The notes under the pieces: model-generated
The model's database searches: none
Told to the model about the DNA's origin: nothing
The model's input: the letters and a program-made list of their open reading frames with translations, nothing else
Origin: Eledone cirrhosa
Lineage: Eukaryota
Length of the DNA: 64,000 bases
Reading direction: 5' to 3'
NCBI GenBank assembly: GCA_964016885.1
Contig: OZ024740.1
Location: 166,036,001-166,100,000, forward strand
Shown: piece by piece, positions 32,626 through 42,800 of the stretch
Layout of the letters: the number at the start of each line of letters is the position of its first letter
How positions within the stretch are numbered: position 1 is the first letter of the stretch
Translations under genes and position numbers: made by a program

Positions 32626-32963
32626 ATTTATATTATATATATATATATTATATATATATATTATATATATATATATTATATATATATATTATATATATAT
32701 ATATATATATTATATATATATATTATATATATATATATATATATTATATATATATATATATATATTATATATATATATATATATATATATATATATATAT
32801 ATTATATATATATATATATATATATATATATATATATTATATATATATATATATATATATATATATTATATATATATATATATATATATATATATTATTA
32901 TATATATATATATATATATATATATATATATATATATATATATATATAATATATATATATATA
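32626..32963. repeat. Interrupted (TA)n tract at the left end of the 311-bp array
   Basis: Direct reading. Confidence 0.95.
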
Positions 32964-35586
32964 TTGGAATAAATGCTCTGAAATAGCGATATATATGTGA
33001 ATATAGACACAGAATATTCGAAAATATTCTGTATGTTTATAATAAACATTTTGAAGACCTAATCGCTATAGAATAGAATACGTCACGTATTACAATTAGA
33101 TTCTCGATAAAAGCAAGGGAAGTAAGTCTACGCGTTTCATTCTTGTTAGAATTCATCAGGACTACATATCCAGTGCTTTTATCGAGAATGACACAGCTAG
33201 AGACTTATAGAATACTTAGCTGTGTACAGGAACTGGTTTGAAAGAGCGGTTGCCGGTCCGGCAGAAATTAGAAATTGGAATAAATGCTCTGAAATAGCGA
33301 TATATATGTGAATATAGACACAGAATATTCGAAAATATTCTGTATGTTTATAATAAACATTTTGAAGACCTAATCGCTATAGAATAGAATACGTCACGTA
33401 TTACAATTAGATTCTCGATAAAAGCAAGGGAAGTAAGTCTACGCGTTTCATTCTTGTTAGAATTCATCAGGACTACATATCCAGTGCTTTTATCGAGAAT
33501 GACACAGCTAGAGACTTATAGAATACTTAGCTGTGTACAGGAACTGGTTTGAAAGAGCGGTTGCCGGTCCGGCAGAAATTAGAAATTGGAATAAATGCTC
33601 TGAAATAGCGATATATATGTGAATATAGACACAGAATATTCGAAAATATTCTGTATGTTTATAATAAACATTTTGAAGACCTAATCGCTATAGAATAGAA
33701 TACGTCACGTATTACAATTAGATTCTCGATAAAAGCAAGGGAAGTAAGTCTACGCGTTTCATTCTTGTTAGAATTCATCAGGACTACATATCCAGTGCTT
33801 TTATCGAGAATGACACAGCTAGAGACTTATAGAATACTTAGCTGTGTACAGGAACTGGTTTGAAAGAGCGGTTGCCGGTCCGGCAGAAATTAGAAATTGG
33901 AATAAATGCTCTGAAATAGCGATATATATGTGAATATAGACACAGAATATTCGAAAATATTCTGTATGTTTATAATAAACATTTTGAAGACCTAATCGCT
34001 ATAGAATAGAATACGTCACGTATTACAATTAGATTCTCGATAAAAGCAAGGGAAGTAAGTCTACGCGTTTCATTCTTGTTAGAATTCATCAGGACTACAT
34101 ATCCAGTGCTTTTATCGAGAATGACACAGCTAGAGACTTATAGAATACTTAGCTGTGTACAGGAACTGGTTTGAAAGAGCGGTTGCCGGTCCGGCAGAAA
34201 TTAGAAATTGGAATAAATGCTCTGAAATAGCGATATATATGTGAATATAGACACAGAATATTCGAAAATATTCTGTATGTTTATAATAAACATTTTGAAG
34301 ACCTAATCGCTATAGAATAGAATACGTCACGTATTACAATTAGATTCTCGATAAAAGCAAGGGAAGTAAGTCTACGCGTTTCATTCTTGTTAGAATTCAT
34401 CAGGACTACATATCCAGTGCTTTTATCGAGAATGACACAGCTAGAGACTTATAGAATACTTAGCTGTGTACAGGAACTGGTTTGAAAGAGCGGTTGCCGG
34501 TCCGGCAGAAATTAGAAATTGGAATAAATGCTCTGAAATAGCGATATATATGTGAATATAGACACAGAATATTCGAAAATATTCTGTATGTTTATAATAA
34601 ACATTTTGAAGACCTAATCGCTATAGAATAGAATACGTCACGTATTACAATTAGATTCTCGATAAAAGCAAGGGAAGTAAGTATACGCGTTTCATTCTTG
34701 TTAGAATTCATCAGGACTACATATCCAGTGCTTTTATCGAGAATGACACAGCTAGAGACTTATAGAATACTTAGCTGTGTACAGGAACTGGTTTGAAAGA
34801 GCGGTTGCCGGTCCGGCAGAAATTAGAAATTGGAATAAATGCTCTGAAATAGCGATATATATGTGAATATAGACACAGAATATTCGAAAATATTCTGTAT
34901 GTTTATAATAAACATTTTGAAGACCTAATCGCTATAGAATAGAATACGTCACGTATTACAATTAGATTCTCGATAAAAGCAAGGGAAGTAAGTCTACGCG
35001 TTTCATTCTTGTTAGAATTCATCAGGACTACATATCCAGTGCTTTTATCGAGAATGACACAGCTAGAGACTTATAGAATACTTAGCTGTGTACAGGAACT
35101 GGTTTGAAAGAGCGGTTGCCGGTCCGGCAGAAATTAGAAATTGGAATAAATGCTCTGAAATAGCGATATATATGTGAATATAGACACAGAATATTCGAAA
35201 ATATTCTGTATGTTTATAATAAACATTTTGAAGACCTAATCGCTATAGAATAGAATACGTCACGTATTACAATTAGATTCTCGATAAAAGCAAGGGAAGT
35301 AAGTCTACGCGTTTCATTCTTGTTAGAATTCATCAGGACTACATATCCAGTGCTTTTATCGAGAATGACACAGCTAGAGACTTATAGAATACTTAGCTGT
35401 GTACAGGAACTGGTTTGAAAGAGCGGTTGCCGGTCCGGCAGAAATTAGAAATTGGAATAAATGCTCTGAAATAGCGATATATATGTGAATATAGACACAG
35501 AATATTCGAAAATATTCTGTATGTTTATAATAAACATTTTGAAGACCTAATCGCTATAGAATAGAATACGTCACGTATTACAATTA
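32964..35586 (-). repeat. Left arm of the 311-bp hammerhead-containing tandem array (8 full units + 135 bp)
   Basis: TTGGAATAAATGCTC recurs at 32964, 33275, 33586 ... 35452 (period 311). Hammerheads lie on the minus strand with left ends at 33122, 33433, 33744, 34055, 34366, 34677, 34988 and 35299. Confidence 0.97.
33122..33165 (-). ncRNA. Minimal type I hammerhead ribozyme (representative of 8 minus-strand copies)
   Basis: Reverse complement of GTAAGTCTACGCGTTTCATTCTTGTTAGAATTCATCAGGACTAC; identical to the plus-arm motif. Confidence 0.92.
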
Positions 35587-39815: not shown

Positions 39816-42800
39816 ATATATATATATATATATATATATATATATATATATATATATATATATATATATATATATATATGTATATACTATATATATATGT
39901 ATATATATATATTATATATGTATATATATATATATATATATATTATATATATATATATATATATATATATATATATATATGTATATATATATATATGTAT
40001 ATATATATATATATATGTATATATATATATATGTATATATATATATATATGTATATATTATATATATATATATATATATATATATATATGTATATATATA
40101 TATATATGTATATATATATATATATGTATATATATATATATATATATATATATATATATTATATATATATATATATATTATATATATATGTATATATTAT
40201 ATATATATATATATATTATATATTATATATATATATATATATATATATATATATATATATATATATATATATATATATATATATATATATATTATATATA
40301 TATATATATATATTATATATATATATATATATATTATATATATATATATATTTATATATATATATATTATATATATATATATATATGTATATATATATTA
40401 TATATATATATATATATATATTATATATATATATATATATATATATATATATGTATATATATATATATGTATATATATATATATATATATATGTATATAT
40501 ACATATATATGTATATATTATATATATATATATATATATATATATATATATATATATATATATATATATATATATGTATATATATATATATGTATATATT
40601 ATATATATATGTATATATATATATTATATATATATATATATATTATATATATATATATATATATTATATATATATGTATATATTATATATATATATATAT
40701 TATATATATATATATATATATATGTATATATTATATATATATATATATATATTATATATTATATATATATATATATTATATATATATATATATATATTAT
40801 ATATATATATATATTATATATATATATATATATATTATATATATATATATATATATATATATATATATATATATATATATATATATATGTATATATATAT
40901 TATATATATATATATATTATATATATATTATATATATATATATATATATTATATATATATGTATATATATATTATATATATATATATATTATATATATAT
41001 GTATATATATATTATATATATATATATTATATATATATGTATATATATATTATATATATATATTATATATATATGTATATATATATTATATATATATATA
41101 TTATATATATATATATATATATATATATATATATATATATTATATATATATATATATTATATATATATATATATATTATATATATATATATATATATATT
41201 ATATATATATATATATTATATATATATATATATTATATATATATATATTATATATATATATATATAATATATATATATATAATATATATATATATATAAT
41301 ATATATATATTATATATATATATTATATATATATATATAATATATATATATATTATATATATTATATATATATATATAATATATATAATATATATATATA
41401 TATATATATATATATATATTATATATATTATATATATATATATATAATATATATAATATATATATATATATATATATAATATATATATATATATATATAT
41501 ATATATATATATATATATATATATTATATATATATATATATATTATATATATATATATATATNNNNNNNNNNNNNNNNNNNNNNNNNNNNNNNNNNNNNN
41601 NNNNNNNNNNNNNNNNNNNNNNNNNNNNNNNNNNNNNNNNNNNNNNNNNNNNNNNNNNNNNNNNNNNNNNNNNNNNNNNNNNNNNNNNNNNNNNNNNNNN
41701 NNNNNNNNNNNNNNNNNNNNNNNNNNNNNNNNNNNNNNNNNNNNNNNNNNNNNNNNNNNNNNTATATATTATATATATATATATATATATATATATATAT
41801 ATATATATATATATATATATATATATATATAATATATATATATATATTATATATATATATATATATATATAATATATATATATATTATATATAATATATA
41901 TATATATATATATATATATAATATATATATATATTATATATATTATATATATTATATATATATAATATATATAATATATATATATATTATATATATATTA
42001 TATATATTATATATATATAATATATATAATATATATATAATATATATATATTATATATATTATATATATATATATTATATATAATATATATATATATAAT
42101 ATATATATATTATATATATATATATTATATATAATATATATATATAATATATATATATTATATATATATATTATATATATAATATATATATATTAATATA
42201 TATATATATTATATATATATATATATATTATATATATATATATATTATATATATATATTATATATATAATATATATATATATATAATATATATATATATA
42301 TATATAATATATATATATATATAATATATATATATATATATAATATATATATATATAATATATATATATATATATATATATATATATATTATATATATAT
42401 ATATATATATATATATATATATATATTATATATATATATATATAATATATATATATATATAATATATATATATATATATTATATATATATATATAATATA
42501 TATATATATATTATATATTATATATATATATATATATATATAATATTTTATATATATATATTATATATATATATATATATATAATATATTTATATATATA
42601 TATTATATATATATATATATTTATTATATATATATATATATATATATTTATTATATATATATATATATATACATATTTATTATATATATATATATATATA
42701 TATTTATTATATATATATATATATATATATATATTATATATATATATATATATATTATATATATATATATATATATATATATATATATTATATATATATA

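Follow-up and report, generated by a model that had tools for sequence, protein, structure and literature searches.

The 64,000-nt stretch of the Eledone cirrhosa genome analysed here (contig OZ024740.1, positions 166,036,001 to 166,100,000; hereafter the window) carries a divergent two-arm array of a 311-nt unit with a hammerhead ribozyme motif, present in 22 copies, in which both arms run outward into (TA)n when read in the ribozyme sense. The array is probably (we put the probability at roughly 0.7) one insertion of a non-coding hammerhead-motif family, made in one coupled reaction by a Penelope-like element (PLE) reverse transcriptase/endonuclease that cut both strands of the TA target and, starting from each cut end, made many successive copies of one small and probably circular RNA. 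The element is an animal retrozyme of the type without long terminal repeats (non-LTR), every testable feature of that group having been found. The layout is most readily understood as the product of a PLE enzyme whose target priming at two sites was coupled, not as the independent healing of a DNA break.

The left arm (32963..35586, minus strand in the ribozyme sense) comprises 8.44 units with 8 hammerhead motifs and extends from an inner (5') end at unit position 78 to an outer (3') end at position 213, while the right arm (35587..39815, plus strand) comprises 13.6 units with 14 motifs and extends from unit position 1 to an outer end at position 187, positions being those of the reference unit at 35587..35897 (plus strand). 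The left arm is identical to the unit through position 213 (TTCCAAT) and the right arm through position 187 (CACATATATAT); as stated in the original prediction, which was made from the sequence of the window, both then pass into (TA)n, and no poly(A) is present at this array. The left target tract is imperfect and measures ~334 bp (32629..32962, window sequence); the right one, also imperfect, measures ~5.5 kb (39816..45366) and is unusually long for the family, the 5.9 kb of TA at this locus being an outlier within it. The arms meet head to head at a blunt junction (35586..35587; 0 nt of overlap), at which unit position 78 of the left arm is joined to position 1 of the right arm and which would represent the joint of two complementary DNA (cDNA) 3' ends. 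Only two variants occur across the 22 units: G48T (34683, minus strand), confined to a single unit and located at the first base past the predicted cleavage site, and a 1-nt deletion at 37414 (plus strand) in right unit 6, which measures 310 nt. The TA-rich site at unit 178-187 (39806..39815, plus strand), shared with the target tract, would be the first priming site. The left arm carries a 26-nt one-sided extension (unit 188-213; 32963..32988, minus strand) that is the counterpart of the Penelope-like "tail", and the second priming site would lie at its outer edge (PMC8557442; PMC11167929).

Based on a motif scan, a type I hammerhead core with stems I-III was predicted in every unit, composed of CUGAUGA, a 5-bp stem II, GAAA and a short palindromic stem III; in the first unit it occupies 35596..35640 (plus strand), with the predicted cut after 35633. 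The match to the Rfam family Hammerhead_HH9 is weak (E 0.1, under the gathering score), and at the gathering threshold Rfam reports no hammerhead in the window. Core position 7 differs between loci and the remaining core is mostly kept. The longest stop-free stretch of the unit covers 59 codons, which leaves it without protein-coding capacity, and there is no LTR; its predicted circular fold is stable (-71.5 kcal/mol, z -5.2), and its length lies within the ~150-400 nt of tandem retrozyme units. Animal non-LTR retrozymes have been proposed to use circular RNA templates, tandem cDNA and PLE partners (PMC7229834; bioRxiv 10.64898/2026.07.22.740005), and the present family resembles them in its tandem non-coding units of ~300 nt, with one type I hammerhead each, in its dispersal and in the coexistence of PLEs in the same genome.

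In the 3.0-Gb genome, 1,286 matches were obtained with the end pattern of the 213 type and 1,367 + 15 with that of the 187 type, a ratio near 1:1, and the core pattern gave 19,636 matches genome-wide, a 320-nt sister family included. The family thus comprises >1,000 dispersed young loci with fixed ends and near-zero internal divergence. Seventy-seven loci were examined, mostly the first matches listed on contig C1 and hence a sample, not a census: 16 found by unit similarity (the window included), 37 through 213-type ends, 24 through 187-type ends and 1 more. Overlapping fetches were merged before counting (L014 with L015, L029 with L153, L032/L155, and L041, which equals L154), L124 was left out as a duplicate of L046, and matches below 95% identity were left out. 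The two-armed divergent layout was found at 64 of the 77 loci, a recurrence that is far beyond chance. Divergent arms with TA flanks are therefore the rule, as expected in the original prediction, and the contrary outcome that it named, a majority of unidirectional copies flanked by sequence other than TA, was not observed.

The outer ends of these insertions are strictly paired. At all 64 two-armed loci an end at 176-187 (59 of them at 187) is paired with an end at 211-220 (40 at 213), leaving a one-sided tail of ~24-33 nt that is somewhat longer when the short end stops before 187. The 37 ends chosen for the 213 type include no 213/213 pair, and the 24 chosen for the 187 type include no 187/187 pair. 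Eight loci fetched later gave six resolved two-armed insertions, all with the same pairing (6/6), besides one cut by a gap and one with a single arm; the 320-nt sister family also pairs the equivalent ends. The 13 single-arm rows of the sample include L027, cut by a gap, and L120, which has a second arm of 11 nt, while 11 are truly one-armed and 9 of these have the 187-type end. Arms average 5-6 units and reach ~30 (L204/L210), and their lengths neither differ by end type nor correlate between the two arms. A fold-back artefact of long reads or of the assembly is an extremely improbable source of this pattern: palindromes and TA tracts are hard to assemble and gaps adjoin L027, L124 and L205, but the arms are not mirror images, they differ in ends, lengths and offsets, their flanks are unrelated, and the layout recurs at 64 loci and in other families.

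The sister family (L107, L108, L144-L152, L158-L186) is older, with short arms and often decayed hammerheads, and is ~75-80% alike over unit 107-213. This common stretch is a candidate protein-binding site. At L008 (5901-7757), a 468-nt tandem family with its own hammerhead adjoins a copy of the 311-nt family. L046 and L124 are one insertion seen twice, 3 kb apart and beside an assembly gap, which reflects either a duplication or an assembly error.

The two end types differ in their relationship to the target. At 48 of 72 termini of the 187 type, position 179 is T, a position at which the internal units have C except at three loci, and at L024, L044 and L156 this end of the element is overwritten by interruptions from the target tract; annealing to TA at the 187 end is thus real. 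The 211-220 end falls where 1-3 nt match the target, and ends at further TA-rich sites within the unit are very rare (at most two, at 175-176), for which reasons the end position is likely set by protein, with homology setting the fine register only. The proposal that both ends fused to (TA)n by microhomology accordingly holds for the 187 end, where annealing took place, but finds only 1-3 nt at the 211-220 end.

TA is present at nearly all ends, only 12 of 154 flanks having <6 nt, and compound TA tracts run in register across both sides of the insertion, which indicates that the tracts existed before it. At the window locus no target duplication is visible because both immediate flanks are near-pure TA, and the absence of duplications stated in the original prediction does not extend to the family: of 63 loci, 11 have informative target duplications, compared with 2.8 (at most 8) after shuffling, an excess supplied in part by periodic flanks, and seven of them measure 12-14 nt. 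These duplications point to a staggered enzymatic cut. Combined TA flanks have a median of 80-88 nt (88 against a length-weighted local background of 93), and those of >=500 nt occur at 12 of 71 loci against 19% expected (8 of 77 under a stricter rule). A preference for long TA tracts was tested and none was found, long tracts being hit in proportion to their size.

These data bear directly on the mechanism first envisaged for the window array, in which a long, fragile TA tract breaks spontaneously and the break is healed through TA microhomology that its two ends find in the RNA independently of each other. The location of nearly all ends in TA, the real annealing at the 187 end and the 5.9-kb tract at the window locus agree with such a scenario. 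Freely priming ends, however, are hard to reconcile with 64 of 64 pairs that differ in end type, with a best-matching site that is never used twice and with the neglect of the other TA-rich sites of the unit, and the healing of fragile tracts is at odds with position-fixed ends, modest flanks and long tracts that are not over-hit, as well as with duplications suggestive of a staggered cut. Break healing is largely refuted by the end pairing and is regarded as highly improbable.

Evidence on the template comes from sequence variants. Among 46 loci with arms of >=2 units (19 haplotypes), both arms carry the same majority haplotype at 45, compared with a mean of 5.3 and a maximum of 14 by permutation; both arms derive from one template haplotype. 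Variants present throughout an array, read in the RNA sense and with the direction given by minority-allele rooting, comprise 11 sites with A>G against a single T>C site (p 0.001), whereas single-unit variants show the reverse (A>G 5, T>C 14; Fisher p 0.0006). The A>G sites (unit 13, 32, 49, 68, 102, 140, 146, 166, 206, 266 and 307) are predicted to be paired in 8 of 11 cases, and A13G, A68G, A102G and A307G recur on different backgrounds, A102G being fixed in 16/16 units of L039 and, on another background, in 10/10 units of L199. The array-wide excess of A>G argues for a step at which a single monomer was present, and the simplest reading would be adenosine-to-inosine editing of one monomer from which all units were subsequently copied; this reading favours a circle.

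The central junctions resemble those left by microhomology-mediated end joining. Over 48 clean joints the mean microhomology is 2.1 nt, against 0.76 at random, and inserts occur at 16 of 64 junctions, 15 of them of 1-18 nt and mostly copied from nearby sequence, and one of 272 nt. Inner ends are spread roughly evenly across the unit, with no pile-up at the predicted ribozyme cut (3/128 against 4.5 expected). In LINE-1 twin priming, both target ends prime on one RNA and give an inverted product with a microhomology joint; the retrocopy has a poly(A) tail, and its inner end is adjacent to the internal priming site. Unlike these products, the present family lacks poly(A), has fixed start sites 26-33 nt apart and shows no adjacency of the inner end to the opposite outer end (8/64 against 12.6 expected). 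Of the twin-priming interpretation given to the window array, the copying of many turns from two ends is thus retained, and so is the derivation of both arms from one template haplotype (45 of 46 loci), while the LINE-1-type geometry is not.

The head-to-head form has also been proposed to arise, in rotifer Penelopes, by self-priming on antisense RNA (PMC3846280). A few junctions consist of long overlaps or palindromes (16 nt in L022, 17 nt in L202), as this would produce, but a separation of <=10 nt between the inner ends of the arms occurs at 4 of 64 loci, ~4.3 being expected by chance, and the overwriting of the 187 end by target bases fits target priming on sense RNA, which makes self-priming quite improbable here. 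Two junctions are of separate interest: at L033 (3599-3870) the unrelated 272-nt sequence was captured between the arms, and L017 (5343-5520) has a short double inversion with the same joint repeated twice.

A candidate source for the enzyme is present in this genome. A young Hydra-clade PLE family is abundant (L137-L143), with seven intact frames of 821 codons that are 97.5-99% alike and carry the motifs DKT, CxCx5C, CxxC and CxH, with RW where the published description has RWK; the clade assignment rests on these motifs, as given in PMC8557442. Pfam returned no significant family for five PLE-like frames. Intact PLEs pair a short and a long end in 4 of 7 regions, that is, in all where both ends were found, and also at L018. 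They show the mechanism and are candidate partners, although no sequence similarity between them and the unit could be detected. A second PLE-like family is old, mostly at 73-87% identity. A pattern search for a partner gave 512 matches, and among the 30 loci fetched, nearly all of them variants of the retrozyme family, no link between the tail and a PLE frame was found; a low-stringency BLAST of the unit against the fetched loci yielded matches to the 320-nt sister family and to a single diverged copy, and no others. At L201 a one-armed array of 13 units is directly joined to a broken PLE fragment, and this region (4797-5810) was considered as a retrozyme-PLE chimera and rejected as evidence for a partner, since its PLE portion carries breaks and deletions and the short type is found at both outer ends.

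The described footprint of PLEs consists of a head-to-head inverted copy with a one-sided tail of 30-40 nt in (TA)n (PMC8557442; PMC3846280). The 311-nt family shares with endonuclease-bearing PLEs of the Hydra clade the head-to-head arrangement (there, an inverted 5'-truncated copy), a one-sided tail of ~30 nt, (TA)n targets, a hammerhead motif and short target duplications (PMC8557442; PMC3846280). It differs from them in having no coding frame, in arms that are long arrays of a small unit, and in a tail that is optional in Hydra-clade PLEs but is paired one-to-one with its partner end in all resolved two-armed loci. For PAc Poseidon it was reported that in vitro both target strands are cut and extended, and that two adjacent RNA start sites delimit the tail (PMC11167929); extension of both strands, two adjacent internal start sites and AT-rich targets are found, or may be deduced, in the 311-nt family as well. 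The PAc start sites are used without strand preference, whereas the two ends of the 311-nt family always take different sites, and multi-turn copying lies outside the scope of the PAc study in its available text (PMC11167929).

Based on the above, the following sequence of events can be proposed. Arrays would be transcribed, and the RNA would self-cleave and circularise. A PLE protein may bind near unit 107-213 and make a staggered cut of ~12-14 nt in (TA)n, after which one target end would anneal to the UA-rich site at 178-187 and prime first, an order suggested by the predominance of 187-type ends (9/11) at one-armed loci, and the other would prime at 211-220 with 1-3 nt of pairing. Each polymerase would then roll a variable number of turns (~13.6 and ~8.4 at the window locus). 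Finally, the two cDNA 3' ends may be joined by microhomology-type repair, each templating the second strand of the other, which would explain the inverted form as the norm. A more daring version, put at somewhat below even odds, places both cut ends on one ADAR-edited 311-nt circle, 26-33 nt apart, with polymerases chasing each other, so that each insertion would record one RNA molecule, together with its edits, in multiple passes. In this version, the head-to-head structure of Penelope would reflect cDNAs that supply each other's second strand.

Several observations weigh against the reading of a coupled PLE reaction on one small RNA. Transcription, cleavage, circles and editing are all predicted from DNA alone, and the window locus has no private variant, its single-template argument being drawn from the family. 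The direction of the A>G changes depends on the rooting, and A102G is also found in 7 single units at 5 loci. ADAR is expected to favour a 5'-U context, and this context is not significant among the sites (6/11, p 0.33). In both arms of L136 the last full unit carries T221C, a single-unit variant is likewise common to the two arms of L200 and of L155b, the A13G allele switches within one arm of L048, and variants recur with periods of 4, 7 and 9 units in L201, L155b, L040 and L204. With respect to the enzyme, the tail of the Hydra PLE family measures ~86 nt, against 26-33 nt in the 311-nt family, and no PLE with similarity to the unit was found in the fetched loci, for which two PLE protein families were searched. 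To these may be added the share of periodic flanks in the excess of target duplications and the PAc start site, which is not homologous to the target, unlike the 187 site, which anneals to TA (PMC11167929).

Part of this evidence would be better accommodated if the template for PLE two-site priming were not a monomer circle but read-through RNA, linear or multi-unit, transcribed from an array already in place. Variants of single units common to both arms (L136, L200, L155b) and periodic variants are expected from such a template; in addition, the main substrate of the PLE in vitro was uncleaved RNA (PMC11167929), and a hammerhead whose stem III is short and palindromic may be inefficient at cleavage in monomeric form, as in the amphibian case (PMC7229834). 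Nevertheless, array-fixed A>G changes that recur on different backgrounds need a single-monomer step, A>G is not in excess among single-unit variants (5, with 14 T>C), inner ends are not piled at the cut site, and arms reach ~30 units (L204/L210). A read-through template is therefore considered unlikely as the general case, even though multimeric templates or later exchange contribute at some loci.

The periodic variants also recall an ordinary satellite that grows by unequal crossing-over and is inverted later. At least four long arrays did grow also by later block duplication, and growth of this kind has been proposed as the way in which retrozymes amplify locally (bioRxiv 10.64898/2026.07.22.740005), but a satellite origin is very improbable given the >1,000 loci that are dispersed, end at fixed sites, contain one inversion apiece and show almost no divergence between their units, the strand-biased fixation of A>G and the fact that most single-unit variants are unshared. 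Shared periodic variants are absent from the window array and from most loci. Variant sharing, which the original prediction named as a possible ground for refutation, shows no pattern of gradual crossing-over at most loci, together with block duplications in at least four long arrays; unequal exchange acts as a secondary process only. In the same way, the number of turns explains copy number insofar as monomers were copied over many turns, but some arrays carry the later block duplications in addition.

With respect to described retrozymes, the 311-nt family is distinguished by insertions with two divergent arms and fixed, paired ends, by its targeting of TA, by target duplications and by A>G marks throughout arrays. 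In the literature searched, which mostly excluded subscription papers and supplements, neither retrozyme insertions that have two arms and a strict pairing of ends nor editing marks that extend over a whole array were reported. It also departs from the 24 of 57 Xenopus retrozyme families with transposable element matches, as no link to PLE terminal repeats was found for the 311-nt unit. Counts of Penelope and hammerheads have been noted in a squid (PMC6962438). The rolling reverse transcription of retrozyme circles by Penelope-like proteins and the origin of the inverted-plus-tail structure of Penelope, steps that the literature either proposes or calls unexplained, become testable with one small substrate. 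The >1,000 young loci yield strict rules on how ends are paired, where copying starts, the 12-14-nt stagger of the cut and the microhomology at the joints. Should the A>G marks represent RNA edits, the editing of a single molecule would have been written into the germ line and multiplied, and a target-primed enzyme that copies a circle up to ~30 turns from both strands would, if true, be of technical interest.

Other features were observed in the surroundings of the window array. In the imperfect TA tract at 39816-45366 the interruptions are G-type close to the array and TT-type further out. On the other side, 31850-32310 contains a head-to-head pair of ends (one short, one long) in TA that belongs to another hammerhead-bearing PLE-like family, of which a short truncated copy lies at 32440-32600; ends related to this family occur elsewhere in the window and at other loci. 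By eye, 27800-29400 and 30830-31830 resemble decayed retroelement coding sequence. Two tRNA-like matches that point apart, at 25447-25517 (minus strand) and 25871-25941 (plus strand), lie barely over the Rfam threshold and are probably the heads of a tRNA-derived repeat.

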